From an uncultured Bdellovibrionales bacterium (GTDB taxonomy: Bacteria; Patescibacteriota; Minisyncoccia; Moranbacterales; GWC2-37-73): 64,000 bases of DNA. The notes below the pieces were generated by a model. It saw nothing but the letters and a program-made list of their open reading frames with translations, was not told where the DNA came from and made no database searches. Positions 7,825 through 60,777 of the stretch are shown in pieces (position 1 is the first letter of the stretch; the number at the start of each line of letters is the position of its first letter). Made by a program: the position numbers and the translations under genes. The stretch lies in NCBI GenBank assembly GCA_964484505.1, contig CAZAFB010000005.1:7427-71426 (forward strand), given 5' to 3'.

Positions 7825-8559
7825 TTATCCTTCATGATTCATCAATCTGTTGAAATACAAATCGACATCACTGACCCACTTGCGAACCGCTTGCGGATCA
7901 TGTCCCGCACAACTGGAACCACATTTCCAAACGACCATACGCGAAGGGGTGTTTAAATTTTTGTCCACTAATTCGCCTATACGGCCGCCTATCGCATCCA
8001 CAGCTTCTTCAGGATCAGCAAAGCAGCCATATCCCATTGCGGTGCCGAGACTTCCGGCACCCTTATACCCCCAATAGTTATAGCAAGTCATCCCGTTCTT
8101 AGACGGAGCAGCCTTGCCCCAATCGCTTTCTTTTTTGGCGATACCAATGATCAGCGCAGCAACGCGCTTATCTTTTTCAGCTATGAAAGGAACCATTTCC
8201 TTGATTGGCGCATTGCCAACCACATCATAAAGTTCCTGTTCAAACCCGTCCTCATTTGCACTGGATGCATCTTTCGGATCTTCGTTTTTTTCAAAACACT
8301 GACCGTCCTCCTGCTCTGACTTTGAGAAAACCTGCGCCTGAGCATTTTGGATCGAATCTTTTACAGAGGCCTTTTGGGCATCTATATTTTCAGCATATGC
8401 ATATACATATTGCTGCGGTTGCAAGCGATCGAGACGAAAAAAAGAACCCGCCATGACTGCCATGGCGATGGTCGCGATTAGGATCTTTTTTTGTTTCGCC
8501 CGACCTTCTTTTTGCTTCCAGTTAAGCAACCAATTCCCCCATTCAGGGCTTTTACCCAT
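7825..8559 (-). CDS. Membrane-anchored GH73-like (glucosaminidase/FlgJ-type) peptidoglycan hydrolase, paralog 1
   Basis: IAKKESDWGK (cf. GH73 ESGWG catalytic-Glu motif); CYNYWGYK (cf. NNLFGIK); MVVWKCG; four conserved Cys; N-terminal TM segment. Confidence 0.5.
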   Translation of the reverse strand: MGKSPEWGNWLLNWKQKEGRAKQKKILIATIAMAVMAGSFFRLDRLQPQQYVYAYAENIDAQKASVKDSIQNAQAQVFSKSEQEDGQCFEKNEDPKDASSANEDGFEQELYDVVGNAPIKEMVPFIAEKDKRVAALIIGIAKKESDWGKAAPSKNGMTCYNYWGYKGAGSLGTAMGYGCFADPEEAVDAIGGRIGELVDKNLNTPSRMVVWKCGSSCAGHDPQAVRKWVSDVDLYFNRLMNHEG

Positions 8560-8783
8560 ACGGTAATGTTACTTCTTACTATCCCCCAGCGTGTCTGCCT
8601 AAAATCCATAGGTACTTTCGGACACGCATTCCAGGGTACCATCAGTACAAGTTGTGGTCAACGAAGTTATCCACATGCTTAAAAATATTTCTGGTAATTT
8701 TTGGCTTCAAAAAGCCATTTATCATTTTTATCCACAAAAAAATGGCTCAATAGAGCCAAATTTTAAATTTATCGCCAAATGTT

Positions 8784-9851
8784 TCAGTCTGCCATTTTCT
8801 TGATGTACATATCCACATCGTTAATCCATTTGTTGGCAGCAGCTCTGCCTCCCGTCGCATTGCAATCGCGACCACATTTCCAAACCACCATTTCCGAAGG
8901 CGTATCAATATTTTCTTCTTTTATAAGAGTACTTAAGCGTTTAGCAACAGTATCGACAGCGTCTTTCTTACTATTGAAACAGGTATGTCCGCCTGTACCC
9001 ATCAAATTGCGCTGAGCGCGATATCCCCAAAGATTATTACAATCTTGTCCTTCTAAAGTTGGTACTCTTTTCCCCCAGTTGCTTTCTTTTTTGGCAATAG
9101 CGATCAGATAGGTAGCGACTTTGCGGTCTTTGGCAAAGATATAAGGAAGCATCTCCTCGATAGGATATCCCTTGACCATTTTGCGTACTTCCTGCTCAAA
9201 TTTGTCCTGATCGTTTATTTCATCAAATTGACTAAGCACTTTTTCCGCCTCCGTCATATTACTATAATCAGCGCTTGCCAAATCGGAATTATCCGTTTGT
9301 ATTTGCTGATGCGTTGCAGGTTCCGTTGCGATGTTTCCAGCAGCAGCACCCTGACCAAGATAACGATAAATCATAGTCATGGAAAACATTCCCAGCAATA
9401 TCGCGCCAACAATCGAAAGATTCCACAAGCGCACCAATGACAACTGTTGAACAAAACCTCTCATAGCGCCATCGACAGCTTCAGCGCTTTGTCTGGAGAT
9501 AGCATCAATTCTGCGCTCAAGAGAGCGAGCTAATATACCGACTGAAGATGGCTGGTATGATTTATATTCACGCACGATACGGCTGCTAAGACTATCCCAT
9601 TTTTTAATATCGCGATCCAGTTTAATGCCCTTGCTGATCCATTGGTATTCGCGTGGAGTAATATAGCGGCGAGAATCCTCTGTTATAAACTTTCCCGTAC
9701 GATACTTGTTTGATAAAAGTTGAGAAAAATTAATTTGTCTGTCTTTTTTTTCACGCAAATTCTCGTAAATTGCCAAGTCAAAATAAGGATCAACCCTTCG
9801 CGGCACCCTGCCGAAATCGATATTTATTTTTGTCTTTGTATTAAAATTCAT
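8784..9851 (-). CDS. Membrane-anchored GH73-like peptidoglycan hydrolase, paralog 2, with extra N-terminal cytoplasmic region
   Basis: IAKKESNWGK, DCNNLWGYR, GGHTCF, MVVWKCG, DVDMY motifs shared with 7825-8559 and 37620-38228; internal TM segment. Confidence 0.5.
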   Translation of the reverse strand: MNFNTKTKINIDFGRVPRRVDPYFDLAIYENLREKKDRQINFSQLLSNKYRTGKFITEDSRRYITPREYQWISKGIKLDRDIKKWDSLSSRIVREYKSYQPSSVGILARSLERRIDAISRQSAEAVDGAMRGFVQQLSLVRLWNLSIVGAILLGMFSMTMIYRYLGQGAAAGNIATEPATHQQIQTDNSDLASADYSNMTEAEKVLSQFDEINDQDKFEQEVRKMVKGYPIEEMLPYIFAKDRKVATYLIAIAKKESNWGKRVPTLEGQDCNNLWGYRAQRNLMGTGGHTCFNSKKDAVDTVAKRLSTLIKEENIDTPSEMVVWKCGRDCNATGGRAAANKWINDVDMYIKKMAD

Positions 9852-17971: not shown

Positions 17972-18006
17972 TTATAGTACAAAAAAATCCGCTTTACGAG
18001 AAGCGG
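17972..18006 (-). terminator. Rho-independent terminator downstream of ABC permease gene
   Basis: cccgcttctcgtaaagcgg hairpin followed by T-run on minus strand. Confidence 0.5.
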
Positions 18007-18040: not shown

Positions 18041-19324
18041 CTATTCGTAGCGCAAGGCGTCCAAAGCGTGGATTTGGGCGGCACGACGGGCCGGCAAAAG
18101 ACCGGTAACCATACCGAGAAAAATAATAAAAGCACCTATGGCGATCATGAATGTCGGCGGAATATACACAAAATGGATGGCTGATAAGCCCTGTTTGGCA
18201 GCAAAAATATTAAAGATAAAGTTTATCAAAACAGCAAAGCCATAACCAAGAGCAAAACCAACCAAGCCACCGGTAAAACTTATAATTGCCGCTTCAAACA
18301 CGAACATATAAAAAATATCCTTGCGTTTGGCTCCCAAAGCTTTCATGATTCCTACTTCGCGCGTTCGTTGAAGAAGTGAAACGCTAAGAGTATTGAGCAT
18401 GCCCATAGCGGAAATGGACATGATAATCGTACCCAAGACTACTAATACAATGCGGATAATCACGAAAAAACTGTTGATATCCGTGACCAGATCAACTACG
18501 CTTTCCGTAACCAATCCCATTTGTTCGATCTGGGAACGAATATTCCCGATATTACCAGCATCTATTCTTAATTTTGCTGATTGAGCCGCAGTTACTCCCA
18601 AATCTCGCTTGAGCAAGCCAAATGGCACATAAATAAAAGTATTCTGGTTATCACTTATAACACCCACAATGGTGCTAGTATCTTCCTTTTCTTCTCCTGA
18701 TTTCTCAACGTTTTCACTGATATCACGCGAGAGGGCCAGATTAAATTTGATTTCCTTGCCTAAGGCTTCTTCATTATTTGCAAAACCAAGAAGACCTGCC
18801 AAACGAGAGGAAATGATCACAGTATTTCCTTCGTCTTCATATTTACTCAACTCTCCCGCAGTAAGCGACATATTGGCCAAGGGGAAATAACCCCTATACG
18901 CACCATAGATAACCACGTCTGTTTGGGAATTTTCAAAATAGGCCTGCCCGCCTCCATTCATCAAAACTTCTATCTCCTTCACGCCTGAAATTTCGGAAAG
19001 TTTTTTGACCATATCATCATTCATCAACACAAAACTTTCCAGATTGGCATTACTGACATCGAGCACATCGATAGAGTTATTTTTAGTAACCTCATTTACA
19101 ATAACCCGCTGCACTCCGAAGCCTAAACAAATTAAAAAGGTAATAATGGCAATACCGATAGCTACACCACCGATAGTAAGCATGGAGCGCATCCTTCCTA
19201 CCTTTAAATTACGATATCCGATGAATATCGTCGTCGATAATTTCATGCGCGAAGCCTTGCCCCCATCGCAACTGGCTTCTGACAGAAATTTGTTTTTTAT
19301 CCAATTTAATAACGCCATATACAA
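18041..19324 (-). CDS. ABC transporter permease, FtsX/MacB family
   Basis: N-terminal TM, large extracytoplasmic domain, C-terminal FtsX-like four-TM bundle. Confidence 0.8.
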   Translation of the reverse strand: MYMALLNWIKNKFLSEASCDGGKASRMKLSTTIFIGYRNLKVGRMRSMLTIGGVAIGIAIITFLICLGFGVQRVIVNEVTKNNSIDVLDVSNANLESFVLMNDDMVKKLSEISGVKEIEVLMNGGGQAYFENSQTDVVIYGAYRGYFPLANMSLTAGELSKYEDEGNTVIISSRLAGLLGFANNEEALGKEIKFNLALSRDISENVEKSGEEKEDTSTIVGVISDNQNTFIYVPFGLLKRDLGVTAAQSAKLRIDAGNIGNIRSQIEQMGLVTESVVDLVTDINSFFVIIRIVLVVLGTIIMSISAMGMLNTLSVSLLQRTREVGIMKALGAKRKDIFYMFVFEAAIISFTGGLVGFALGYGFAVLINFIFNIFAAKQGLSAIHFVYIPPTFMIAIGAFIIFLGMVTGLLPARRAAQIHALDALRYE

Positions 19325-19406
19325 GTGAAATATAAAATTCCTACACTTAGTTCAAATATGCATCATTGTAATCGATAACCTTAAACATTTTTAATCTTTA
19401 GTGATT

Positions 19407-20129
19407 CTATTTATCGACAACTAGTCCATCCAGCATATGAATGACTTGATCAGCATATTGATACTGTTCAGGATTATGCGTAACCATCAAAATAGTAATA
19501 TTGAATTGCTTATTGAAATCTTTTAGCAATTCCATTAATTCCTGTCCGGCTTTCATATCCAGATTTCCAGTAGGCTCATCCGCAATCAAAAAACGCGGAT
19601 TAAGCAAGAGCGCCCTAGCCAAGGCAACGCGTTGCTGCTGGCCTCCGGAAAGGTCATATGGCCTATTGTGCATCCATTTGCCCATGCCCACCATCTCAAT
19701 CAATTGCGCTGCACGTTCCAGCGATTGCGCGAAGGTATCTCCTTTTATTAAGGATGGGATGGAAACATTTTCCAGAACAGAAAGTGATTTTATCCAGAAT
19801 GTCTGCTGGGGAATAAAGCCAACAAATTTGTTGCGAAAATCAGCTCGCCAATCCTTGGTTTTTTCCCAAATGCTGCATCCATCTATATATATCTTGCCCG
19901 TCGAAGGACCTTCCAGCCCATAAATAATATGAAGCAATGTTGATTTTCCACAACCGGAAGGTCCTGCCAAAATTGCAAAATCGCCCTCGTTTATGGAAGC
20001 GCTCACACCTTTGAGTACATTTACCGTGGTTGCACCCAAAATGAAATCTTTGGTTACATCTTCCACTCTGATGATTTCTTTTTTTGTTTTTTTTGTTTTT
20101 TCTATTTGCTCCATAATTTCGAGATCCAA
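19407..20129 (-). CDS. ABC transporter ATP-binding protein (MacB/LolD-like)
   Basis: Walker A GPSGCGKST; ABC signature LSGGQQQRVALARAL; Walker B LIADEPTGNLD. Confidence 0.9.
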   Translation of the reverse strand: MDLEIMEQIEKTKKTKKEIIRVEDVTKDFILGATTVNVLKGVSASINEGDFAILAGPSGCGKSTLLHIIYGLEGPSTGKIYIDGCSIWEKTKDWRADFRNKFVGFIPQQTFWIKSLSVLENVSIPSLIKGDTFAQSLERAAQLIEMVGMGKWMHNRPYDLSGGQQQRVALARALLLNPRFLIADEPTGNLDMKAGQELMELLKDFNKQFNITILMVTHNPEQYQYADQVIHMLDGLVVDK

Positions 20130-23100
20130 CCGAATCTGCTGGCGAATGTATCCACCACCACCTCCGTTGCGTTTTGTTTTTTGCCTTCCGTTACAATTGT
20201 CTGGGGTTGGGTCAAGGTTAAGTTTCCAGCATCATCATATGCTTCGACTTGATAACTGTATACTTGTCCAGCCTCTGCCGGAATCGTAACCATATGGTAG
20301 GTATTCAAATTGTCTTCCGGTGTGTTCTGTTCAAAATTAGATACAATAACTCCTTTGCCAAAGCGTACCTTGGTACGAGTCAATTCATTTGTTTCTATTT
20401 TTATATATATATTCGCTTGAGCATCCTTGCCACGCCCGTTTACTTTACCAACAGCTCGGTTGGTAACAATTTCCGGAGGCCTGCTGTCAGATTTGGTCGT
20501 AATTTTCTGCTCTACGGGAGTAGCCTCTACGCCAGCTTCACTAACACCACTTATGGAAAGCGTGTATTCCTTGGCAGGATCCATTCCGGCTATTTCAGCG
20601 ACATGTTCAGTTGTTGGCTGACTTTCCAAAAAATTATGGAAATTAGCCTCATCGGCAGTCTTGAATCTGACCAATGTGGTCGTATTTACATCTGTCTTAT
20701 ATCTTACCACAACAGTCGGCACATCCACATTCTCCTTATTTTCGACTTGAACTTCCGATACTACCGGCAATTTAAGTGTAGTGAAAGTATATTCATCTGA
20801 AGAGAATTGGTTATTGTCAGCATCCAATGCATCGACCATTACTTTGTATGTTGAGGCACTGTCCAGTCCTTCCAGCTTCATCACATGGGAAGTCGAACCG
20901 GACGTTTCCTCTGAAGATCCAGTAAAAGCTCCTTTGCCGAATTTCAAGGTACAAGTTGCACTGACATTAGTTTTCCAAGAAACCGTTGCTGTGTTAAGAC
21001 CGACGTCATTGATAACCATATCGGAAATAGTAGGAGGAGGAAGGGTTGTGAAAGTTAGAATCTCAGAGGTACCAATGTTACCGTCAGGATCAATATATTT
21101 AACACGATAGAAATATTTAGTATCAGCAGCAAGACCTTTCACTTGCACGGCGTGATCCGTGACCGAGTCAACTTGCCCGGTTGTTTCCCCGAGTTCCGTA
21201 GTTTTGCCATATTCAATGAAAGAACTAGCCGTACGATTTGTTGCCCACGTGAAATCAGCAGCAAATGATTGTGCTTCAACAGCTGGCTGTTTAACTATGG
21301 CCGGTGGCCTTGTGTATTTACCAGTCGGCGTAAGCTGCACTGTAGCGGAAGCCGGAGAATAGTTATTGGTCTTATCTTTGGCTTTAACGTAGTAATAATA
21401 TAATCTACTTTCCAATTCCGTATCCACATAAGCGCTACCAGTAGTTGAAGCTATCTCCGTGAAATCGACATTGTCATCCGAACGATAGATAGTATATCCG
21501 GCAAAATTACCCGAATCGTACGTTACAGGCGGTGACCATTTCACTGCCACGCTATATTCAGCATTTTCACGATCAGAGGTATCGAAGGCTTGTGCGTTGA
21601 GCGGCTGACTTGGCGCGCTGGTCTCGGCATAGAAATTTACCGCTGCCGGATTATTCCAATCGGCGTTGTTCAAAAGATCGGTTTCACCTCCTTCGTTCAA
21701 GGCAACAATATAAAAAGTATTCTTTCCATATTGCGTAGCAAATGGTCCTGGTCCTGCCGCAAGTGCCGTGGTTACAGTCGTGTTGTACGGGGTTGGCAAA
21801 ACATTTATTGAATAATAATATTTGAGCTTAGTAGGATCTCCTCCGTATACTGATGGAGTTTCCCAAGTGAAAGTGAATGAATTTGTCGTATTGTTTATAT
21901 CCGACGGAGTAACTTGCAGATTATTCGGTGGTGAAGCCGGACCTCCGGTATAGTAGTAATCCTGAGAAATTGGCGAGGAAGTGTTTCCTGCGGCATCTAC
22001 TGTGCGAAGATAGAAAGTATTTTTATTGTTCTGATAATGTGTTTCTGTTTGGGTAACTGTTGCAGGATCAGGAATATCATGCCAGACCCCAGGTGTATCA
22101 CCACCAGTTCGATATTGAAACATAGCCACGCCAGAATTAGCATCTGATGCATCCGGAGTCCAGGAGAAAGTATATGAAATAGCAGATGAATACCCTGTCG
22201 GATTCACGGAAATATCACTCGGATTGCTTGGTGCAGTTGCATCATAGCGATAAACAAATGCATCATAACTTGTTGAGCTTATAAAACCGGCATTATCAAT
22301 GGTCTTGATTTTTAGATAATAGTCAGAACCGGAACTTGATGGCGATCCAGCAAAACTGTTTCCGGCTTGAAAAGAGCCGTCTACAAAAGGATCAGCCGAA
22401 GCATTAGTGCCGAAATAGACATAATATCCTGCCACACCCGAACCTCCGGTGTTATCCTGAGCACCACCCCCTGCTCCCGCCAGAGGCCATTCAAAATATG
22501 GTGCTGCATGATTATACCAATTGTTAGTAGTTATACTACTTCCCGTAGAGCTGCTTTTGGCTGTAATTGAGGAGGGATTTGTCGGAGGATCAATATCTTG
22601 ATAATAATTGATCGTAAAATCATCAAGCCGCGGTGAAAAAATACGATCATTTGAAGTGAATCTGGCACGAACCTGAATGAATTCTGCGGGAGCAGAAACA
22701 ATACTCATCACATGTGTGTTACCAAATACATGATCATTTGCCGTCGGACTCCAAGATGACCAATCCGTACCGTTGCTAGAAGTTCGTGTTTCAAAAGTCA
22801 ATGTCGTATTATTGGGCTGCACATAATTTACGGTAAGATTTGCCCAGCGATAAACGGAAACAAGGTCCATTGCTTCAGATTCATATGTTCCAGTCTTTGC
22901 AAAACCGGTACCATTTGTTTCACTACCGATTACATAATTATACAAACCATCGCCAAAAGAATTTGTGCCAGCACCCGAAATCAACCAATTGCGATTAGCA
23001 AGATAAACAGAAAATCCTCCGGTAGTTACATTGGCTGGAATATTGGCGGAAGTTAAAGATTCCCACGTTCCAGGCGTCGCCTGCGCAGTATTGTAACGAT

Positions 23101-26100
23101 AATAGGTGTTGGTATTGATACCACGAGATACGTAGAGATAACCATCATGACCATCAATCATATTGGCGCCAGCTCCTGCAGTTGCGGGCAATGCTCCGAG
23201 CACAGTCCAAGTAGTGTTGGAAATTTGATAACGACAAGTAGTCGCATTTGTGGCACCTCGTAAAAGATAGATATAACCGTCTTTATATACAATCTTTCCG
23301 CCATCACCCGTAAGACATGAAGCATTGACGGGAAGTGCCGCAGACCAACGAGAACCTGCTGCCGCAGTCGTATCATAACGCCACCAGGTGTTAGCACCGT
23401 TTCCGGCGGTTAAATATATATATTGAGATCCGTCATAAGTCATTGAGGAGCCAACCAGTGTTTTAGCCGGCGGACGGTCCGTGATTATTTCTTCCCAAGT
23501 ATTGGTATTAGTGAGGTATCTGAAAAAATATGGGGCTTTGGAATCTCCGGTACGTGCGGTCCTAATATTTCCTGGTATATAATAAACGGCATTTTCATCT
23601 TCATTGAAAACCATACTACTTCCTTGATATAAACCTACCGGCAATTTCGAGAGTTCCGTAAATGTTCCCGAATCCGTATCATAACGCCCAAAAACATTAT
23701 CATATGAACCACGTGCCATATAAATCGAATCACTTTTGTCCGCAGCTATAACCGATCCATTACCATAGAGGAAATAACTGGTTCCGGCAGTTGTCGACGG
23801 TCCAAAAAATGCTCGCTGCGGCAATTCCCAAGTATTTTCAGCAATATTAAAGCGATAAAAATTCGTTGTCGTGCCACCGCGCGTTGCATAGATGTAACCA
23901 TTGTAAACAACCATGGATGCACCATAGGATATGGAAGCAGGAACATCAGGCATCACATACCAGGTAGCAGACTCAATATCGTAGCGATAAAATTTTTGCC
24001 TACCTTTTCCCGCAAACACATAGATGGAATTGGCAGTGTTGTCAAAAACGATAGTGCCACCATCATAGATTCCTTCGGGAGCCATAGGCAGCGAAGTCCA
24101 AGAGTTGGCATGCTCACCCCGAGATAAATCGTCCCCGATGGAATACTTGGCAAAATAGGGATACAAGTTTCCCTGAATCACATAAATATTATTGCGCTCA
24201 TCATAGATAGCATCACCACCAATATATGTCCTTTGTCCATCTGCCGTATTTGGGTTTCCAAACTCCGCATTCGGGAGCTGCGTCCAAGAGGGTGTACATG
24301 ATGTTTGATTATTGCACGTGTCATATTTGTAGAAAGCATCGTCATTTCCAGGCATCGCATAAATATAGCGCGAACCATCATAGGAAAGATTCGAGCCATA
24401 ATCGAAATTCTTCGGCGCGCTGTCTATTGTGCTCCAAACATTATTCTCTATGTCATACATCCAAAAAGTTGAAGTTGCTACACCTCGAGCAGCATATAGA
24501 TAACCGGCAGGACCTGCCACCAAAAATCCGCCATTATTGACTGCCAAAGGAGCGGCAGCAACGGTTGCGGGAGATGTGGTCCATGTATCAGTTTCTATTT
24601 CATACCTATGAAACGTGGTTCCGTTAGCGCCACCGAAAGTATAGAGACAATGATTACTATTGCCCCTACATGAACTTAATGCCAATTCTCCCCCAGCAGC
24701 AATATTTCCCAGAGCAAGTGAGAGCCGTGCTTGATTCCAAAAACCATTTGATGAATTCAGTCTTACGGAATCAGTTACACTAGTGGCATTAACATCAGTA
24801 AGCGTGCCTGCGGCAAAATCTGCAGTTGAAGTTTTTTGCTCATCAAGATAAGGGGAGACACCGCTATAGACATAAGTAAATGCATCCCAGGTAGAAGAAG
24901 AAACATTGCCGTTTACATCTTTGGTTTTAACGCGCAGATAGTATGTTCCTGTTTGCAGGGCCAAATTTACCACATAAGAACTGGCGGTTTGGTATGATCC
25001 TTGCGTTACTGGGTCTGCGCCATCGTCAGTACCAAAATACACATAATAACCATCAATACCACTGCCGGAGTCGGCAGCACCACTCCAAGAAAAATAAGGA
25101 TGTTCATGCGGATATGATTGCCCTGAGGTCAGCGCTTGTCCACCTACTTGCTGCGATCTTGCATCAACCGCGGTCGGATTTGTAGGCGCATCGTCCTCAC
25201 TGTTATAAGAAATTGTGTAATCAGATACTGTAGGCGTGTAAAGGCCATCAGACGTGTTAAGCGTAACCTTTACTTGCACATATCTGTTGACTGGCGAAGC
25301 GATTGTCGTTCCGGAAATAACTTGCCAAGAAGACCAGTTTTCGTTATCAGAACTAGTACGGGTTTCATAGGTAATGCTGGTATTGGTCGGCGTATTGTCC
25401 GCTTTATTGAAAGAAACCCAGCTTTGCACATTGGATAAGTCTAGTGATTGACTGACATAAGTACCACTAGCAACAAAATTGGTAGCGCCGGAAGTGTAAC
25501 TCCACACGTCAGCAAGACCTTGCCCTGTTGTGGCAAAAAATGAAGTGCCACCGGCATATTCTATAGATGCTCCATTATATGGTCCGCGGCCGAAGGTATA
25601 TTGTTGATTATTCGGCAGCTTGCGCCAAGTGTCCGTGGCAATGGTATATTCCCAAGTGTCATCTTTATAAAGTCCCGCCAGAGCATATACTTTGCCATTG
25701 GCATAAGTCATATCAGTACCATAATATTGTGCAAAAGGCGTTGAAGCAATCTTACTCCAAACACCTCCACTATATTTCAAGAAGGTTGTTTCTCCATCTC
25801 CCAACATCACATACACATCAGTTCCATCAGTAACAATACGTGCTCCAATACTAGCATAATAGGTAACACCACTCACCACCATGTTGGCAAGGGCGGTCCA
25901 ACCGCCAGCATCAGTGTAACGATAAAAATTGGCAGTACCATTACCGCGAATGGCATAAATTGAATTATCGGATGCGCAAGCAAGCCCTGCACCATTACTT
26001 GCCGTAGCCGGGAAAGGCTGTGTGGTCAATGTCGTCCAAGCGTTTTCAGCGTAACGATAGAATGTTGTCGTATTGCCGCCTAGAAGAGCATACACATAAC

Positions 26101-27703
26101 CGTTGCAATAAGTGGCCTTTACATCCGTTGTAATTGAAGCAGGCGTGGTAGCTTTATTGGTCCAGATATTTGTAGCGACATCGTAACGATAGAAAGCATT
26201 ACTGTTGCCTCTTATAGCATAGACGTAATTAGTTGCACCGGATTGCCCATTCCAAATCAAATCACCACCAGTATTTACGGTTCCGGTTCCATCCAGCATC
26301 TGTTTTGGTCCCTCCCACTCGCCATTTGCTCCCAAAGAAGGATCAAATTTCCAAATATCCGTCGTACCGTTACCACGAACGCCATACAATTTATTATCAT
26401 CGGTATTAAGAATCAGTGAACCATAATTCACTGTTGCAGGAGCGACTTCATTCGTTCCCGAAAGCACGGTCCAGGAGTTACCCGCAACATTAAAACGAAG
26501 AAAGCTAGTTGTCGAGCCACTACGAAAATAATAAATATTTCCATTGTAATATGCACCTCTTTGATCCGAAGTGAAAGTATAACCTGTAGTAGCATTTGCT
26601 CTGGCTTCCCAGGTATTTGCCCCCGTACCAGATATCTTGTAACGATAGAATGTTAGAGTGCTAGCACCCCGAGTAAGATAGAAATATCCGTCCTGACCAT
26701 TTACCAAATCACCTCCCGCACCGACAGTTGCAGGAACTGGAGCTAGATTACTCCAATCATTTGTCGCCACATTGTAACGCCAAAAATCAGTACTGCCATT
26801 ACCCCTGACCACGAAAATATTCGTACCATCAGTTTCCACTGCAGCGCCTTGCCAAGGGGTGTCCAAAAGATCTGCAAGCTGGGTCCAAACACCCGTGGCA
26901 ATCGTATATTTGTAAAATTTTTGCGAATATCCTCCAAAAATCGCATATATAGCTCCATTGCCATCATAGATCATGTCCGCACCATAATATGCAGGCACCG
27001 GCAGATCAGCCAATGTATCCCATTTGTTTTCTGCAACATCATAACGCCAGAAAGCTTTGTCTGAATACCCCCTAAAAACATACATATAGCCACCGGTTAT
27101 CACACCAGAATGTCCATATGCAATGGTATCTTGCGGTGGCGCCCAAACGCGCGCGCCCCAAGTTCCTGTGGGTTTCAATTGAATCGCATCTTGAGAACTT
27201 TCAGTACTGACGCTGGCAAGCGTACCTTTGTCCCAATCATTTTTGAAAGTAATTGTTGTTGATTGTGGGGCGCTGAGCGCAAAAGGATTTGCTGCATAAA
27301 CCATGGCAATTGCCACTGCGATCACCATGCTTCGATACGTTGTCTTAATACCGAAAATCGCTGTTTTTTTAGTAAATTTTTTGAAAAGTGCACTTAACTT
27401 CTCTACCAACTTGAGCCTAACATAAGCCTTTCCCAAAACATGTGCTTCATGCTTTTTTGCAACCAAAGCAACTTCCAAATCATCAATTTTACCCCAACGC
27501 AAAACACGCTTGCGAGAAATTTTCTCTCCGCGCTGACAGCTTTTCCAATTCCCGTTTTTATTATCCATACAACGGGTCTTATCTGTAGTATTCTTTTTTG
27601 TTTTTCCTTTTGTCTTTTCTGTCATTTTATATTGTAAAAACAAAGGCCCAGGCCGGCACAAACGCTTTTGGCGTTTTATGTCGACTCGGGCCGGTTTTGC
27701 CAT
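20102..27703 (-). CDS. Giant (about 2500 aa) secreted/surface protein with multiple Kelch-like beta-propeller repeat blocks and C-terminal fibronectin type III domains
   Basis: Recurrent ~50-aa units (…FYRYD..TN.W..L…); Fn3-like segments (APSNPSDISVNP…, TATVSWKTNVSATCTLKFGK); signal-anchor MVIAVAIAMVYAANPFALSA; alternative start at 27625 (MTEKTKGK) lies after a terminator-like hairpin; 28-nt overlap with ABC ATPase gene. Confidence 0.7.
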   Translation of the reverse strand: MAKPARVDIKRQKRLCRPGPLFLQYKMTEKTKGKTKKNTTDKTRCMDNKNGNWKSCQRGEKISRKRVLRWGKIDDLEVALVAKKHEAHVLGKAYVRLKLVEKLSALFKKFTKKTAIFGIKTTYRSMVIAVAIAMVYAANPFALSAPQSTTITFKNDWDKGTLASVSTESSQDAIQLKPTGTWGARVWAPPQDTIAYGHSGVITGGYMYVFRGYSDKAFWRYDVAENKWDTLADLPVPAYYGADMIYDGNGAIYAIFGGYSQKFYKYTIATGVWTQLADLLDTPWQGAAVETDGTNIFVVRGNGSTDFWRYNVATNDWSNLAPVPATVGAGGDLVNGQDGYFYLTRGASTLTFYRYKISGTGANTWEARANATTGYTFTSDQRGAYYNGNIYYFRSGSTTSFLRFNVAGNSWTVLSGTNEVAPATVNYGSLILNTDDNKLYGVRGNGTTDIWKFDPSLGANGEWEGPKQMLDGTGTVNTGGDLIWNGQSGATNYVYAIRGNSNAFYRYDVATNIWTNKATTPASITTDVKATYCNGYVYALLGGNTTTFYRYAENAWTTLTTQPFPATASNGAGLACASDNSIYAIRGNGTANFYRYTDAGGWTALANMVVSGVTYYASIGARIVTDGTDVYVMLGDGETTFLKYSGGVWSKIASTPFAQYYGTDMTYANGKVYALAGLYKDDTWEYTIATDTWRKLPNNQQYTFGRGPYNGASIEYAGGTSFFATTGQGLADVWSYTSGATNFVASGTYVSQSLDLSNVQSWVSFNKADNTPTNTSITYETRTSSDNENWSSWQVISGTTIASPVNRYVQVKVTLNTSDGLYTPTVSDYTISYNSEDDAPTNPTAVDARSQQVGGQALTSGQSYPHEHPYFSWSGAADSGSGIDGYYVYFGTDDGADPVTQGSYQTASSYVVNLALQTGTYYLRVKTKDVNGNVSSSTWDAFTYVYSGVSPYLDEQKTSTADFAAGTLTDVNATSVTDSVRLNSSNGFWNQARLSLALGNIAAGGELALSSCRGNSNHCLYTFGGANGTTFHRYEIETDTWTTSPATVAAAPLAVNNGGFLVAGPAGYLYAARGVATSTFWMYDIENNVWSTIDSAPKNFDYGSNLSYDGSRYIYAMPGNDDAFYKYDTCNNQTSCTPSWTQLPNAEFGNPNTADGQRTYIGGDAIYDERNNIYVIQGNLYPYFAKYSIGDDLSRGEHANSWTSLPMAPEGIYDGGTIVFDNTANSIYVFAGKGRQKFYRYDIESATWYVMPDVPASISYGASMVVYNGYIYATRGGTTTNFYRFNIAENTWELPQRAFFGPSTTAGTSYFLYGNGSVIAADKSDSIYMARGSYDNVFGRYDTDSGTFTELSKLPVGLYQGSSMVFNEDENAVYYIPGNIRTARTGDSKAPYFFRYLTNTNTWEEIITDRPPAKTLVGSSMTYDGSQYIYLTAGNGANTWWRYDTTAAAGSRWSAALPVNASCLTGDGGKIVYKDGYIYLLRGATNATTCRYQISNTTWTVLGALPATAGAGANMIDGHDGYLYVSRGINTNTYYRYNTAQATPGTWESLTSANIPANVTTGGFSVYLANRNWLISGAGTNSFGDGLYNYVIGSETNGTGFAKTGTYESEAMDLVSVYRWANLTVNYVQPNNTTLTFETRTSSNGTDWSSWSPTANDHVFGNTHVMSIVSAPAEFIQVRARFTSNDRIFSPRLDDFTINYYQDIDPPTNPSSITAKSSSTGSSITTNNWYNHAAPYFEWPLAGAGGGAQDNTGGSGVAGYYVYFGTNASADPFVDGSFQAGNSFAGSPSSSGSDYYLKIKTIDNAGFISSTSYDAFVYRYDATAPSNPSDISVNPTGYSSAISYTFSWTPDASDANSGVAMFQYRTGGDTPGVWHDIPDPATVTQTETHYQNNKNTFYLRTVDAAGNTSSPISQDYYYTGGPASPPNNLQVTPSDINNTTNSFTFTWETPSVYGGDPTKLKYYYSINVLPTPYNTTVTTALAAGPGPFATQYGKNTFYIVALNEGGETDLLNNADWNNPAAVNFYAETSAPSQPLNAQAFDTSDRENAEYSVAVKWSPPVTYDSGNFAGYTIYRSDDNVDFTEIASTTGSAYVDTELESRLYYYYVKAKDKTNNYSPASATVQLTPTGKYTRPPAIVKQPAVEAQSFAADFTWATNRTASSFIEYGKTTELGETTGQVDSVTDHAVQVKGLAADTKYFYRVKYIDPDGNIGTSEILTFTTLPPPTISDMVINDVGLNTATVSWKTNVSATCTLKFGKGAFTGSSEETSGSTSHVMKLEGLDSASTYKVMVDALDADNNQFSSDEYTFTTLKLPVVSEVQVENKENVDVPTVVVRYKTDVNTTTLVRFKTADEANFHNFLESQPTTEHVAEIAGMDPAKEYTLSISGVSEAGVEATPVEQKITTKSDSRPPEIVTNRAVGKVNGRGKDAQANIYIKIETNELTRTKVRFGKGVIVSNFEQNTPEDNLNTYHMVTIPAEAGQVYSYQVEAYDDAGNLTLTQPQTIVTEGKKQNATEVVVDTFASRFGWISKLWSK

Positions 27704-27969
27704 TCAACTCCCTGCACGCACATGGGCAATCCTTATATCTTCAACAAAAGTAAAGGCTTCGTGCAGATCAATGTTTCCTGAGTTTTTGATTCCTCCGAAA
27801 GGTGAAAAAAATCCCTGACAGAGCGAAAAAAATATTCTTTTTGTATGTTTTAATTTTAACATATTTTGTTTTTTAAATCGAGAAGTTATCCACAGCAAAT
27901 CCACATGTGTTTAATCAACAAAAAACGAGGCTGCTAAGCCTCGCCTTCGAAAAATATTCTAATATGATT

Positions 27970-40020: not shown

Positions 40021-40120
40021 GGACTTGCCTGAAACAAAGAGATGTCCTTCACACTTCACTGATAAATACTTAGGGATCAGAAAACATAGCAACCCATTGG
40101 AACTTGAGGGCAAATGCATA
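40021..40120. repeat. Degenerate copy 3 of the structured intergenic repeat, in the leader of the RND gene
   Basis: Shares ctgaaacaaaga…cccatt…gacttgagggcaaatgc with copies 1 and 2. Confidence 0.4.
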
Positions 40121-43100
40121 ATGTCTAACTATTACCACTTAACTATGGACAAACAACAATCATCGGATTCCAGATATTTGGAAAAACTAGAATTCAAGCC
40201 GGAACTACGCAAGACTTGGTTAAATTTTTTTGTTACCAATTTTCGCGTAGTCGTTCTTTTAATTGTGCTACTCAGCGCCTGGGGCATATATTCATTCGTT
40301 AGCCTTCCTCGAGAATCGGATCCTGAAGTGAAAATCCCCTATGCAATGGTAATTACGACCTTCCCGGGCGCTTCACCTTCAGACATTGAAGAATTGGTTA
40401 CCAAAAAGATTGAGACTGTGATTTCCAGCGTGAAAGGCGTGAAGAAAATAACTTCCGATTCTTCCAATTCAATATCCTCGATAACCGTAGAATTCGATAG
40501 CAGCGAAGATCAAGACGAAGCCTTGCGCAATTTACGTGACAAAGTCTCCACTGTAGACGATCTTCCGGATGATGCAAGCGAGCCATCCGTAAATGAAATA
40601 TCCTTGGATGACACTCCTATTTTTACTTTTTCCATTTCCGGACCATATGATGGATTAACATTGCGAGAATATGCCGAAAAAATTCAAGACGAGTTGGAAA
40701 AAATTCCCGGTGTTCGTGAAGTGAATGTTTCTGGTGGAGACCAGAAAGAATTCGAGGTTGCCTATGATCCACAAAAACTTTCTTTGTATGAAATTACCGC
40801 CAATCAAGCAAATTTGGCAATCAGCGCAACGAATGTCGCCATAGCCGGAGGAAACTACGAGGGCGCTTCTTTCAATTATCCTGTGCGGACAGACGCGCGT
40901 TTCTTCGATGAAAAATCATTAGGTGAAGCTCCGATAAAACATAACGGTAGCGCCATTGTACAGTTAAAGGACATAGCCTCAGTCAAAGAAAAAGCGATCC
41001 AGCGCAATGTATATTCCCGTCTCTCCGTGGAAGGAGACGCGCCTCAAGAAGCGGTGACGATTAGCGTCATCAAAAAAACGGGAGGCTCAATCATCAAAAC
41101 CACTGATGAATGCAAAAAAAGAATCGAGACGATGATGAAAACTTTTCCCGAAGGAGTTTCCTATGACACCACCTCGGACACTTCCAAGTTCATTCGTCGC
41201 GATTTCGACCAACTGACACATGATTTCATCCTTACCCTTATATTGGTGATGACTATATTGTTTCTGATCGTTGGATTTAAAGAAGCTATAGTTGCCGGAC
41301 TGGCCATCCCCTTGGTGTTTTTTGCAACATTCGGCATAATGTTGCTCACAGGCATAACGCTTAATTTCCTTTCATTGTTCTCCTTGCTTCTTTCCTTGGG
41401 GCTCTTGGTTGATGATGCCATTGTGGTAGTCAGCGCGACAAAACAATATATGCGTACGGGTAAATTCACGCCTGAAGAAGCTGTACTGCTTGTGCTTAAT
41501 GATTTCAAAGTGGTGCTTACTTCCACCACACTGGCTACGACTTGGGCGTTTTTACCGCTTCTTTTCTCAACAGGTATCATGGGTTCGTATATTAAATCTA
41601 TTCCCATAACTGTTTCCGTGACACTTATTTCATCATTGATCATTGCTTTGATTGTAAATCATCCCCTCGCCGCAATCCTGGAGCGCATCCGCCTTACTCG
41701 AAACATTTTCCGCATAGACATCGCATTACTTTTGATTTTGGCAATCGTCGGTTTCTTAAGCAAGTCCACTTTCGGCAGCGCACTCTTCGCAATTTCCCTG
41801 ACAATGATCGTGTGGCTTGTTTGGTGGTATCGCAAAAAGGGCAAAAGGCAGCTAATCGCTAATGAGGCTTTGGCAAAAGAAGAATGGAAAAATGACGAGC
41901 TGATCAAGAAAAAACTGGCCTCCCAGGGAAGCACCGAGGATACTTCTTTTTCCAGCAAGCTTATTCACGGCATCATCCACTTCGATAAAGTAATACCCGT
42001 CTACGAGAAATATCTCAAGCTGGTTATTTCCACCAAAAAATCACGCTGGATTACTTTACTTGCTACACTTGTTTTATTTATCGGTGCCATAATCCTGCCT
42101 ATAACAGGCGTTGTTCCTTCGGAATTTTTTCCTGCTTCAGACCAAGATAATATCTATGTAAATATCGAAGCTCCATCTGGATTGAATCTCGACAAGACAG
42201 ATTACATCACCAGAAAAGTCGAGGAAAAACTTCTGGCTTTTCCTCAGGTAGCCAATTTTTCCACAGTAATAGGAAAAAGCGGTTCTTCAGGTCATCGTAT
42301 CAGCGGCTCCATGAGCGGCTCGACCCATTTGGCTTCCATAACGATAACCTTGGTTGAGAAAGAACTTCGCGAGGAAACTTCCTATGAGCTTGAAAAAGAT
42401 ATCAGAAATGCTATTTCAGGCGTTGAAGGAGCAAAAATAACCGTGGAATCACAACGTGGCGGACCGCCATCAGGCAGCGCCTTCGAAGCGCAAATTCGCG
42501 GAGATGATTTGCAAGCTTTAGACACTATAGTACAAGATTTGCAAATAAAACTATCCGAAATTAAAGGTGTTGTAAATATAGACTCTTCTCTCAAAGAAGC
42601 GCCGGCTCAATACACTTTTGCACTCAACCCCGTGAAAATGGAGCTATATGGCCTCAATGCTTCTTACGTAGGTTCATCTATCCGCATGGCAATTTCCGGA
42701 GTAGACGTCTCCACAATCATCAAAAACAACAAGGAATTCGATGTTATTGCGCGTTTCGACAAAAGCAAGCTTCCAGATCTTGAATCAGTCCAGAATATCC
42801 AACTCACAAACTTGCAAGGAAATCCCGTGTATATCAAAGATGTTGCAACAGTAAAGTTGGAGCCATCTATTGAAACTATAAGCAGAATAGATCAAAAACG
42901 CGTAGCAATTCTGAGTGCGGGAGTTGAAGGAACAACCAGACCCAATGACGTACTAGCCCAATTCCAAAAGAAAGTCTCGGAAGAATACTCTCTGCCCGAG
43001 GGATATGAAATAACCTATGGCGGCGAAAATGAACAAAATCAAGAATCAGTCATGTCGATTATCCGCGCAATGGCGATTGCCGCAGTTTTGATAATTTCAA

Positions 43101-43534
43101 CACTGATCATCCAATTCAATTCCTTCAGAAAATCTATGATCGTTTTGGTTACTTTGCCTCTGGCCTTGATCGGTGTCTTTATCGGCATGGCAGCATTCGG
43201 AGTATCTTTGAGTTTCCCTGGTCTTATCGGGGTGCTGGCGCTGTTTGGTATTGTGGTAAAAAACGCAATCATTCTGATTGATAAAATAAACCTAAATCTT
43301 AAAAGCGACATCGCTTTTGATGATTCAATCATCGATGCCGGTAAATCGCGTCTAGAAGCTATATTTATCACTTCCATATGCACAATTGCCGGCATTATCC
43401 CAATAACTCTTTCCAATGAGATGTGGACCGCCTTGGGCAGCGCCGTGATTTTCGGCCTCACAATTTCATCATTCTTCACACTCTTTATTATTCCGATACT
43501 GTTCAAGACATTCATTAAATCGGAAGATCATTAA
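40121..43534 (+). CDS. RND-family efflux transporter (AcrB/HAE-type), 12 TM
   Basis: About 1130 aa with two large extracytoplasmic loops and duplicated six-TM halves; start set at MSNYY because the longer ORF (40025) runs through the intergenic repeat. Confidence 0.85.
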   Translation: MSNYYHLTMDKQQSSDSRYLEKLEFKPELRKTWLNFFVTNFRVVVLLIVLLSAWGIYSFVSLPRESDPEVKIPYAMVITTFPGASPSDIEELVTKKIETVISSVKGVKKITSDSSNSISSITVEFDSSEDQDEALRNLRDKVSTVDDLPDDASEPSVNEISLDDTPIFTFSISGPYDGLTLREYAEKIQDELEKIPGVREVNVSGGDQKEFEVAYDPQKLSLYEITANQANLAISATNVAIAGGNYEGASFNYPVRTDARFFDEKSLGEAPIKHNGSAIVQLKDIASVKEKAIQRNVYSRLSVEGDAPQEAVTISVIKKTGGSIIKTTDECKKRIETMMKTFPEGVSYDTTSDTSKFIRRDFDQLTHDFILTLILVMTILFLIVGFKEAIVAGLAIPLVFFATFGIMLLTGITLNFLSLFSLLLSLGLLVDDAIVVVSATKQYMRTGKFTPEEAVLLVLNDFKVVLTSTTLATTWAFLPLLFSTGIMGSYIKSIPITVSVTLISSLIIALIVNHPLAAILERIRLTRNIFRIDIALLLILAIVGFLSKSTFGSALFAISLTMIVWLVWWYRKKGKRQLIANEALAKEEWKNDELIKKKLASQGSTEDTSFSSKLIHGIIHFDKVIPVYEKYLKLVISTKKSRWITLLATLVLFIGAIILPITGVVPSEFFPASDQDNIYVNIEAPSGLNLDKTDYITRKVEEKLLAFPQVANFSTVIGKSGSSGHRISGSMSGSTHLASITITLVEKELREETSYELEKDIRNAISGVEGAKITVESQRGGPPSGSAFEAQIRGDDLQALDTIVQDLQIKLSEIKGVVNIDSSLKEAPAQYTFALNPVKMELYGLNASYVGSSIRMAISGVDVSTIIKNNKEFDVIARFDKSKLPDLESVQNIQLTNLQGNPVYIKDVATVKLEPSIETISRIDQKRVAILSAGVEGTTRPNDVLAQFQKKVSEEYSLPEGYEITYGGENEQNQESVMSIIRAMAIAAVLIISTLIIQFNSFRKSMIVLVTLPLALIGVFIGMAAFGVSLSFPGLIGVLALFGIVVKNAIILIDKINLNLKSDIAFDDSIIDAGKSRLEAIFITSICTIAGIIPITLSNEMWTALGSAVIFGLTISSFFTLFIIPILFKTFIKSEDH

Positions 43535-60300: not shown

Positions 60301-60777
60301 ATATGGGTTAGAAACACAAAGTGTGTTGGTTCCAGTAGTGATGCCAGTTACGACTGCCGATTCTTTGAGGGTCGTGTTCCAAATTGTTTGCCCGACGGCG
60401 ATCGAATTTTCATTAGTGCCGGTCGCATAGACGATGCTCGTAAAACCACTGCCGCCGCATCCTGCAGCATTACGTGTTACGGTCGTGCTGGCTGTTTCGG
60501 TCCAAAGATTGGCATTGTTCAAAGATTCCGTCCAAACTGTCGATCCACCAGCCGCTGCATCATATAGTCTGAAAACAATGTCATAAGCCCCATCAGACAC
60601 AGGAATGGCGCTGCCGTCAGTTAACTTACCTTGATAGTTGATGTTTTCATTGAAAGCTGCGCTCGCTGCTGGAGATCCAACAAACAAAAACATAAAAATA
60701 GCCACAAAAAAGAGTAGCTCTCCTACTCGTAGCCCCCTAGTTACGGATTTTTTGTTTGTGTTAATTTTGATGCGCAT
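57334..60777 (-). CDS. Large (1147 aa) secreted Gly/Thr/Ser/Asn-rich surface protein (putative beta-helical adhesin or S-layer-like)
   Basis: Signal peptide; low-complexity G/T/S/N-rich repeats throughout. Confidence 0.55.
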   Translation of the reverse strand: MRIKINTNKKSVTRGLRVGELLFFVAIFMFLFVGSPAASAAFNENINYQGKLTDGSAIPVSDGAYDIVFRLYDAAAGGSTVWTESLNNANLWTETASTTVTRNAAGCGGSGFTSIVYATGTNENSIAVGQTIWNTTLKESAVVTGITTGTNTLCVSNPYSSWANSDDLTNRVYVKSGLFSVMMGTVSSFSAIDFNQTLYLGVTVGNDPEMSPRKMIGALPAAFTAKTLNNNGSASIGTNAGSTLSIGNTTGAVTMNSGGTSAWTNTSGGLTISTATSGTLALNSAGALNLSSAAASTVTLANVANALNFDSDTLTIDALNNRIGIGTNAPSATLDIAGSMTDSNGTSSIYHNPTITQSVAGYTNYGYKMVLNNTLSWGTDTTYGIHVTNSSGAAGARHGIYAYAVNNAIYGQGGTYGVYGDNSAYGTGVGVYGKTTGTSAGNALKAESTTITSSNLSVFNQATSAFSGTGLLMNFANSTGSFTGNFVDLQKNSVSQFKIDANGAVTGGTYNGLTVSSTTGTLTLASGSTLATSGGNSVTLTSTGTTNATLPSGTVTLMANPMTAPGDLIYGGTSGSPTKLAGSGTNGWVLAYNTATNTPYWTAPGGGSQTPWTGDINAAGYDLGSLSNLLFQETTGTPTGTDVGFYRDNSGDLTGNVLTGKTLNIAVNGTDEYNFSSTGLAFNSNNITGLGTNLTAAGALTIASTSSGLTFDSGSNTTTIDSSDTALTASGVTTLTLGAGVTITNASGNINIQPAGTGTGNVQIGDGGTSSATPDLLVLDTGSAEPTGTVGAMYYSTALNKFRCYQNTSWTDCIGSVTGGSPAGSNTQIQYNSSGSFGANAGLTFDSSTQTLGLNGTDAAINMTGITTEPTAPAAGTMDFYAKSIAGRMMPKWIGPSGLDSIVQPMVAMNKVAWWNPPGNATTAPGVLGMAAQTIVSNGGTALTSRSVATTNLFTRMKRAGIVSTTTAGYIASMRNGTAQFTVGNGSGLGGFTYVARFGSTDAISAARAFVGFTSSTAVPTNVEPSTLTNAIGMCQLSTSNNWQICYGGSAAQTPIDLGANFPANTSSADMYELVLFAPTNVNNVVNYRVTRLGTAYQASGTLTAATPGTQLPAATTLLASRFWKTNNTAASVVGLDIASLYIETDY

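Follow-up and report, generated by a model that had tools for sequence, protein, structure and literature searches.

Systems of the MacB superfamily, a group within the ATP-binding cassette (ABC) transporters, act by mechanotransmission, without moving substrates through the membrane (PMC5985334). One such MacB-type pair, YtrEF of B. subtilis, has an unknown substrate and has been linked to cell-envelope properties (PMC8060467). In published work on bacteria belonging to the Candidate Phyla Radiation (CPR), MacB/Lol-like pairs are listed as defence pumps (PMC7427843), and giant proteins are treated as generic adhesins and discussed solely in terms of adhesion (PMC11809585, PMC13059738). We analysed a locus on the minus strand of contig CAZAFB010000005.1 in which a MacB-type ATPase and permease are encoded directly behind a giant Kelch/Fn3 surface protein. 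Throughout, "the window" is the whole stretch of 64,000 nucleotides (nt) analysed, L numbers are related contig loci and P numbers are homologous proteins. We read the locus as a type VII ABC system whose dedicated partner belongs to a new class.

The open reading frame (ORF) at 20102-27703 encodes 2533 amino acids (aa) in the ORF list of the window. Its first-pass annotation as a giant Kelch/Fn3 gene was borne out by Pfam, which matched Kelch_6 (105.9 bits, cut-off 25.3), Kelch_1 (68.5 bits) and fn3 (36.9 bits, cut-off 25). On the same strand, 3' of the giant, lies an ABC_tran ATPase gene (19407-20129 by the longest-ORF rule), and 3' of that the FtsX-like permease gene named in the same annotation (18041-19324 by the same rule), which Pfam resolved into MacB_PCD plus FtsX. 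With the starts that we prefer, the three minus-strand genes occupy 20102-27625 (giant; ATG 27625, 2507 aa, against 2533 aa from 27703), 19407-20114 (ATPase of the LolD/MacB/FtsE clade; 235 aa, ABC_tran 114.7 bits) and 18041-19318 (permease; 425 aa from ATG 19318, or 427 aa from TTG 19324).

All eight giant loci that could be assessed (L001, L002/L003, L004, L005, L006, L007, L088, L118) carried the giant, followed immediately by the ABC_tran gene and then the MacB_PCD+FtsX gene, on one strand. The giant homologues whose contigs were examined were 83, 82, 51, 48, 40, 38 and 37% identical to the giant of the window, and their outer flanking genes were all different. A scan with the permease, taking one genome per species, returned 397 relatives, and the best 80 of these were examined; they spanned at least ten CPR lineages (Moranbacteria, Saccharibacteria, WWE3, CPR2, CPR3, Berkelbacteria, Doudnabacteria, Dojkabacteria, Microgenomates and Collierbacteria), and seven were too short to assess. 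A large protein bearing the tail of the giant was encoded directly upstream in 68 of the 73 assessable loci. Its ORF, of up to 2663 aa, carried the tail pattern '..(I/V)..L...FG(W/F)(L/I)'; relative to the start of the ABC gene, its end lay between about -43 and +320 nt (at 642 nt in L048, which is truncated). The remaining five loci comprised three with a giant-like ORF downstream of the permease, one with a tail-bearing ORF behind a kinase-like gene and one with too little upstream DNA. One contig (L050, 1-11185) held two complete trios in tandem. In the window, a hidden Markov model of the tail matched aa 2489-2531 (E = 1.3e-17) and nothing else in the 64 kb, and here too the protein with four Fn3 domains and the 'FG(W/F)' helix is encoded directly upstream of the ATPase and permease.

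The first-pass annotation had suggested that the ABC pair might be dedicated to the giant, a proposal that a pair conserved in the absence of the giant would have undercut. No such pattern emerged, given that four of the five loci without an upstream giant had a giant-like ORF elsewhere. At the level of gene order the linkage of giant and ABC pair is thus established. This lends the idea of a dedicated transporter strong comparative support: since the three genes are found together again and again in the CPR, it is probably the giant, and not drugs, on which the transporter works.

The modules vary in several respects. A histidine-kinase-like ORF is inserted in the module in L063 (3-10351) and L038 (9761-20981), and a kinase/regulator pair lies just upstream of the module in L004 (5186-7763). 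Small proteins of 150-171 aa, with a transmembrane segment and one Fn3 domain of the same type, also occur (L006 15143-15601; P0284, P0292); one of them is encoded between the giant and ABC genes, and a role as accessory subunits is possible. Some public metagenome-assembled genome records with non-CPR labels contain loci that share 50-60% identity with modules of the Moranbacteria type: Bdellovibrionales (L008, L036, L055), Gammaproteobacteria (L040, L074, L086), Melioribacter roseus (L031), Candidatus Fimivivens (L019) and Weeksellaceae (P0107). The similarity of these loci suggests mis-binning or mislabelling, not occurrence outside the CPR. Two published candidates were set aside: SEML1_0890, an Fn3 protein of Southlakia epibionticum, is small and unrelated in context (PMC10633639), and the operon described in a preprint on a novel pilus system in CPR is a different one, without ABC or FtsX genes.

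At the junction of the first two genes, the longest-ORF rule takes TTG 20129 as the ABC start, which gives the 28-nt overlap of the first-pass annotation. The overlap proved real but shorter: the in-frame ATG 20114 gives 13 nt, and on four related contigs (L001, L002, L004, L088) gene callers arrived at precisely this 13-nt overlap. The A of this ATG is the third base of a Leu/Ile codon, and its TG opens the giant's conserved C-terminal Trp codon ('(L/I)W'); a comparison of the junctions at the DNA level found it within the conserved (L/I)-W codons in four genomes. Because the start is embedded in these codons and is called identically on four contigs, we take ATG 20114 to be the ABC start in this sequence, and the arrangement points to translational coupling of the ATPase to the giant gene.

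The proposal that the three genes form one transcription unit was likewise supported. The giant/ABC overlap is kept in four genomes, a hairpin scan of the window found no terminator-like hairpin between the three genes, and such hairpins lie on both outer sides, so the gene arrangement supports a single operon. Upstream of the giant stands typA/bipA, followed by a terminator-like hairpin at 27948-27921. The unit is closed on the minus strand by another at 17989-18006 (CCGCTTCTCGTAAAGCGG followed by ATTTTTTTGT), beyond which lies a gene for a class A penicillin-binding protein. In the window, 88 nt (19325-19406) separate the ABC stop from the permease ATG 19318, and a weak match to a promoter falls within this gap (19394-19365); at other loci the ABC and permease genes overlap by at least 4 nt.

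The ATPase has intact motifs: GPSGCGKST (Walker A), LSGGQQQR (signature), LIADEPT (Walker B) and THN (H-loop). Its best NCBIfam matches were LolD, YbbA, DarD, FtsE, DevA and MacB, all below their cut-offs. In the permease, MacB_PCD (PF12704, 65.4 bits, cut-off 27) covers residues 47-242 and FtsX (PF02687, 73.5 bits, cut-off 25.5) residues 296-418, and the predicted topology is one transmembrane segment, an extracytoplasmic domain of ~220 aa and three further transmembrane segments. The closest solved relatives of the permease are B. subtilis YtrF (9o9x, 7e-27), 5xu1, MacB and LolC/E. Taken together, the FtsX transmembrane domain, the MacB_PCD domain and a LolD/MacB/FtsE-clade ATPase with intact motifs place the pair, by sequence, in the MacB / type VII ABC superfamily. 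None of the more specific assignments reached its cut-off: scores were 61.6 versus 362.45 bits (TIGR02212) and 204.4 versus 307.75 bits (TIGR02211) for LolCDE, 167.8 versus 264.85 bits for FtsE (TIGR02673), 40.3 versus 225 bits for FtsX_Gpos and 34.1 versus 255 bits for FtsX_Gneg. There was no HlyD-family (MacA-type) gene in the window locus or in the eight homologous loci with precomputed Pfam annotation. In more distant modules (L005, L007, L118) the ATPase carries an N-terminal extension of 60-220 residues, for a total of 309-460 aa, and in L006 and L007 the external domain of the permease is expanded (719-848 aa).

We then consider what the giants share. Every homologue keeps the C-terminal tail, as do the 68 CPR loci, and an alignment of the last Fn3 domain and tail from 21 diverse members gave a common pattern. 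A search with the last 349 residues against 1.84 billion cluster representatives returned 500 matches at E<=1e-30; the top 150 included 148 newly returned representatives, and 80 of these, some as long as 6321 aa, end in the tail. When the alignment of the tail (A8) was used as the query, the matches were all short fragments with little taxonomy. In L118 the giant has 5134 aa and LamG passenger domains instead of Kelch, and an ABC/MacB-like pair again follows. By these alignments, what defines the family is a C-terminal stalk of four Fn3 domains with its helix; Kelch repeats do not, and the N-terminal passenger is variable (Kelch, LamG, others). A second module was not found in the window, where the other large ORFs encode an AcrB-like transporter and a protein of 1147 aa that lacks the tail.

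An AlphaFold2 model of the last 349 residues showed four beta-sandwich domains and a 20-residue helix (overall predicted local distance difference test, pLDDT, 89.5). Foldseek matched this C-terminal module to tandem FnIII arrays, and sequence and profile searches of the PDB found only generic Fn3 and no specific relative. The helix (helix 328-347 of the model; aa 2512-2531, ATEVVVDTFASRFGWISKLW, 20111-20170, minus strand) is the family tail. Its hydrophobic moment of 0.31-0.55 and mean hydrophobicity of 0.1-0.45 indicate a helix that is amphipathic and not transmembrane.

How the pair might act on the giant can be proposed from these features, and we lean slightly towards a system shared throughout the CPR, with a type VII ABC mechanotransducer that serves as a dock for the giant's C-terminal module or acts on it. 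The giant would be exported via Sec by its N-terminal signal or anchor, and its C-terminal module would dock on the extracytoplasmic domain of a MacB-type permease dimer. The cytoplasmic ATPase would drive conformational changes in the external domain of the permease, by mechanotransmission as in FtsEX, LolCDE and MacB, and these ATP-driven changes would hold, position or actuate the giant at the cell surface, or the permease may simply anchor the C-terminal module. The giant would thereby take the place of the adaptor or partner (MacA, YknX, EnvC, PcsB) of other type VII ABC systems. The 13-nt overlap would tie translation of the ATPase to the end of the giant gene, and transcription into the operon would be gated by a structured leader in which helix P1 competes with a terminator. 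The module, the pair and their coupling are the invariant features, and binding of the C-terminal module by the external domain of the permease appears the most economical reading.

Several points weigh against this proposal. The Moranbacteria-tier N-terminus also looks membrane-anchored, so that C-terminal docking would leave both ends of the giant at the membrane, and the tail helix was modelled with only moderate confidence (pLDDT 61-76). The permease survey covered the best 80 of 397 relatives from one genome per species, and adjacency within one superphylum can in part be a legacy of shared descent from an old operon and not a sign of direct contact. Moreover, in Southlakia epibionticum a MacB-like pair (SEML1_0054/0053), possibly orthologous to the pair of the window, has no adjacent giant and showed only a growth defect in transposon sequencing (PMC10633639).

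Other mechanisms were weighed against the same evidence. In the manner of LolCDE, the transporter could pull the N-terminal anchor or the amphipathic tail from the membrane, freeing the giant or passing it to the wall or surface layer. The permease and ATPase do resemble LolC/E and LolD, the apparently uncleavable anchor of the Moranbacteria tier (LSA-P) would need another way to be freed, and the ordinary cleavable signal peptides of more distant members also fit release. We nevertheless regard extraction as unlikely, because the N-terminal anchor is not family-wide, whereas the C-terminal module and transporter are, the Lol equivalog cut-offs are far off (61.6 versus 362 bits and 204 versus 308 bits) and an acceptor protein is not encoded in the locus. 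Less probable again is that the pair is a common pump for efflux or peptide resistance with no more than an operon in common with a surface adhesin. Export of drugs or peptides is frequent among pumps of the MacB family (PMC5985334), and in genome papers on the CPR such pairs carry the annotation LolCDE/MacAB 'defence' transporters (PMC7427843); against independent functions, the adjacency is kept across very divergent CPR lineages while the other neighbours all change, the ABC start codon is embedded in codons of the giant's conserved tail, and the whole trio was copied in the tandem duplication.

We give similarly little credence to a sensor, in which the propellers would bind an external ligand such as a host glycan and the pair would relay or sense the binding, as BceAB does for its histidine kinase. 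The kinase-like ORFs within the module in L063 and L038, the kinase/regulator pair upstream in L004 and the likeness of the double-propeller fold to the glycan-sensing periplasmic domain of BT4663 speak for such a role, but most loci, the window included, have no kinase, and it is the passengers (Kelch, LamG, Fn3) that vary freely while stalk and tail are the conserved part. Finally, the C-terminal helix could be a secretion signal for the adjacent ABC transporter, as in RTX/LapA adhesins. An uncleaved, amphipathic C-terminal signal beside an ABC gene, invariably at the extreme C-terminus, does resemble a substrate of type 1 secretion. The permease, however, has the MacB/FtsX fold without a transmembrane substrate channel and is not an ABC_membrane exporter, no HlyD-type gene or other membrane-fusion or outer-membrane component is present at the giant loci, and the N-terminal signal or anchor of the giant suits Sec, so that we consider this route very improbable.

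More than 120 full-length homologues of the giant were found, with 2370-2675 aa and 37-83% identity. In 85 Moranbacteria-tier N-termini that were aligned, the consensus G+.Y.+ lies within 'SL.EFL..Y....S.GK.Y.RR'. In the window a conserved cytoplasmic juxtamembrane motif, ..LE.AL......H.LGKAY.R.K (aa 71-96, 27416-27493, minus strand), is set in a lysine/arginine-rich cytoplasmic N-terminal stretch. A single hydrophobic segment read from the sequence (aa 125-145, 27269-27331, minus strand) follows, and then ALSA-P. At its outer end the motif P-(G/F)-A-L-S-A-P (aa 140-147, 27263-27286) is found in the window and in the 85 homologues, of which P..LSAP is conserved in the alignment. A proline at +1 blocks cleavage by signal peptidase I, and the segment is therefore probably an uncleaved signal anchor. 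More distant family members have ordinary cleavable A-x-A signal peptides instead.

Outside the membrane the giant has two double Kelch propellers, each apparently inserted into a beta-sandwich. Unit 1 (25154-27265, minus strand) was modelled with AlphaFold2 over residues 147-850 from a 36-sequence alignment (pLDDT 93.1, predicted TM-score 0.87); about 48 strands make up about 12 four-stranded Kelch blades, flanked by N- and C-terminal strands. These blades, with the Kelch_6 score above its gathering threshold, identify Kelch-repeat beta-propellers. Foldseek matched the unit to double propellers (Aip1, LRP6, the glycan sensor BT4663) and to single Keap1 Kelch domains (TM-score up to 0.74 on the target). 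The segments flanking the propellers had no Pfam match; judging from strand order in the model, they probably form one split beta-sandwich that holds the inserted propellers. Unit 2, a second Kelch block (residues ~955-1700, 22604-24841, minus strand; Kelch_6 89.3 bits in six stretches), has flanks that repeat the sequence motifs of those of unit 1. The Fn3 array (20171-22591, minus strand) completes the ectodomain, and its last four domains (aa 2185-2505) are the family-wide core. Here fn3 above its gathering score and the Foldseek matches to tandem FnIII arrays agree; a Pur_ac_phosph_N-like Fn3 match was sub-threshold on the whole giant and reached 48.7 bits on the C-terminal segment. Conservation is even across the 2,400 aa of the ectodomain (column identity 0.55-0.8), a sequence pattern more in keeping with a machine part under constraint than with an adhesin that evolves fast.

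Where translation of the giant begins was also considered, since ATG 27703 and ATG 27625 are both in frame with the ORF and the latter had been offered as an alternative. GGGAG does precede ATG 27703, as annotated, but is unlikely to be a meaningful ribosome-binding site: the two closest orthologous leaders (L001, L088) have GTTAG there, and Shine-Dalgarno-like motifs stand at a usable distance in only 4 of 35 window genes, the starts being preceded by A/T-rich sequence. Because such motifs are rare, calling starts from them is unreliable for this genome. The homologue P0002 (82% identical) begins MKEKIKEKNKR, equivalent to M27 of the window protein (MTEKTKGKTKK). P0001 (83% identical) was called further upstream, with extra residues unlike residues 1-26 of the window protein, and its similarity begins at the position of 27625. 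Column conservation is 0.15 over residues 1-50, versus 0.55-0.8 for the ectodomain.

The DNA upstream is conserved all the same. The block TGCAG..AGTTGAATGGCAAAACCGGCC is identical in the window, L001 and L088 save for the two dotted bases. In L001 the ATG within the conserved block meets a TAG five codons on (the conserved leader stretch ATGGCAAAACCGGCC is followed there by TAG), and the gene call on that contig, its long ORF, reads the block in another frame. Because the block is read in different frames in different genomes and contains TAG in L001, its conservation, as these sequences indicate, is not protein-coding. That is, because orthologue similarity begins at 27625, the upstream DNA appears non-coding, GGGAG is not kept and residues 1-50 are poorly conserved, translation most likely starts at ATG 27625. 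We rejected ATG 27703 with its GGGAG because the DNA is conserved independently of frame, the terminator lies downstream of this ATG and Shine-Dalgarno motifs are rare here.

The sequence before ATG 27625 forms a structured 5' leader (27680-27798, minus strand) that contains ATG 27703 and GGGAG. RNAalifold, applied to the three orthologous leaders of the window, L001 and L088, gave nested helices P1, P1b and P2 with 17 pairs, three of them with compensatory changes, a covariation that rests on three sequences. A covariance model (R1) run on 41 loci matched only upstream of the giant gene in the same three loci, and a metagenome scan for further copies with the pattern GATTGCCN{8,32}AATGGCAAAACCGG gave 29 stretches, none convincing under R1. 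The leader element thus seems confined to this narrow clade.

The two hairpins that the first-pass annotation had read as a terminator or attenuator both exist, but they are parts of one terminator and not separate. They fold as one long hairpin (27692-27645), followed by UUUGUUUUU, in an intrinsic-terminator-like element at 27636-27692 on the minus strand. The fold of 27700-27628 has -27.9 kcal/mol (z = -4.3; 0 of 200 shuffles were as stable), and the equivalent in L001 has -25 kcal/mol (z = -4.6), in support of the attenuator reading. The L088 counterpart deviates, its minimum free energy structure being a different hairpin (z = -1.27). Because the 5' strand of the terminator includes or overlaps the 3' strand of helix P1, we infer that P1 and the terminator would be mutually exclusive, as in a riboswitch or attenuator. 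A c-di-GMP-II riboswitch (Rfam RF01786), an appealing candidate in front of an adhesin operon, was considered and rejected. The window gave a full-length match below threshold (25.9 bits versus a gathering threshold of 53.5, E ~0.002), the orthologous leaders of L001 and L088 gave none at E<=10, and searching the window and 88 related loci, some 1.5 Mb of related DNA, gave no ORF with a GGDEF/GGEEF motif.

Further upstream, a promoter-proximal block (27853-27894, minus strand) combines a DnaA-box-like sequence, TGTGGATAA (27894-27886), with an extended -10-like sequence, TGTTAAAAT (27861-27853). The DnaA-box block CTGTGGATAACTT is unchanged across the window, L001 and L088, and TGTTAAAAT is conserved apart from one substitution in L088 (TGTTAGAAT). 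The block may be the promoter of the operon; a consensus promoter scan did not list 27853-27894. The perfect DnaA box TTATCCACA occurs three times in the window versus 0.63 expected, at 8667-8675, 8728-8736 and 27886-27894, and the third is conserved in L001 and L088. The distance between the other two is 61 nt; they fall in the intergenic stretch that separates the ORFs at 7825-8559 and 8784-9851, both without a Pfam match, and GC skew keeps its sign throughout the window.

The window has a G+C content of ~41%, and the nearest homologues of the giant and permease are named Candidatus Moranbacteria/Moraniibacteriota, Parcubacteria group or Patescibacteria group; we take the DNA to come from a CPR bacterium related to Moranbacteria. 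Elsewhere in the window, an RND transporter of the AcrB/AcrD/AcrF family (40025-43534, plus strand, 610 bits) would be unusual if the cell lacks an outer membrane. The 1147-aa ORF (57334-60777, minus strand) has no Pfam family and no tail motif; it adjoins a gene at 61060-62052 (minus strand) whose product has a WxL-interacting peptidoglycan-binding domain, and the two may form a second surface-protein cluster.

No description of a giant protein together with a MacB-type pair was found in the open-access literature, of which coverage was incomplete. A large part of bacterial diversity lies in the CPR, whose members are believed to live attached to host cells. The coupling suggests a definite role for an ABC system that ranks among the most frequent of the unassigned ones in their reduced genomes, and gives a recognisable C-terminal signature by which partner proteins can be found. 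Tentatively, and with distinctly less confidence than we place in docking itself, we suggest that the CPR/Patescibacteria may possess an undescribed surface system of their own, in which a MacB-type dock and ATP-driven actuator serves a family of giants with interchangeable distal binding domains as a powered host-attachment device, in this clade also under riboswitch-like leader control. The tail, the external domain of the permease and the ATPase offer a testable target in cultivable Saccharibacteria. If true, the proposal would extend the type VII mechanotransmission principle to a new class of partner.

Compared with known systems, the locus recalls RTX/LapA adhesins and their type 1 secretion systems in its giant, repetitive surface protein with a conserved extreme C-terminus, the adjacent ABC gene, and variable ligand-binding inserts on a repetitive stalk. 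It differs in that the ABC fold is type VII and not that of an exporter, the giant has an N-terminal Sec signal or anchor, and RTX repeats, membrane-fusion protein and outer-membrane protein are absent here. By sequence the closest solved relative of the permease is that of B. subtilis YtrEF (PDB 9o9x, E = 7e-27 over the transmembrane half), but the similarity is limited to the C-terminal transmembrane part and the ytr operon is without a giant tail-bearing protein. LolCDE shares the best NCBIfam match of the ATPase (LolD) and a permease that aligns with LolC/E, and it too acts from outside on a membrane-anchored protein. Here, in contrast, scores are far under the equivalog cut-offs, there is one permease gene and no Lol acceptor in the locus, the organism resembles the CPR, and the giant, with no lipobox at its anchor, is no lipoprotein.

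Likenesses to MacAB-TolC and the Gram-positive YknXYZ are the MacB periplasmic core with the FtsX transmembrane domain and a gene order in which the partner directly precedes the ATPase and the permease. That upstream gene, however, encodes a giant and not a HlyD/MacA-type adaptor, the ATPase is unfused and there is no outer-membrane duct. With FtsEX (partners EnvC, PcsB, CwlO, RipC) the locus shares a separate ATPase and a permease of the FtsX fold with four transmembrane segments. It differs from FtsEX in that its permease has MacB_PCD and not the FtsX external domain, the FtsE/FtsX cut-offs are not reached, and the partner is a 2,500-aa Kelch/Fn3 protein without a hydrolase or coiled-coil domain. 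We judged FtsEX the best-fitting model for the locus, as a system whose permease binds its partner through the external domain and passes on ATP-driven movement with no transport of a substrate.

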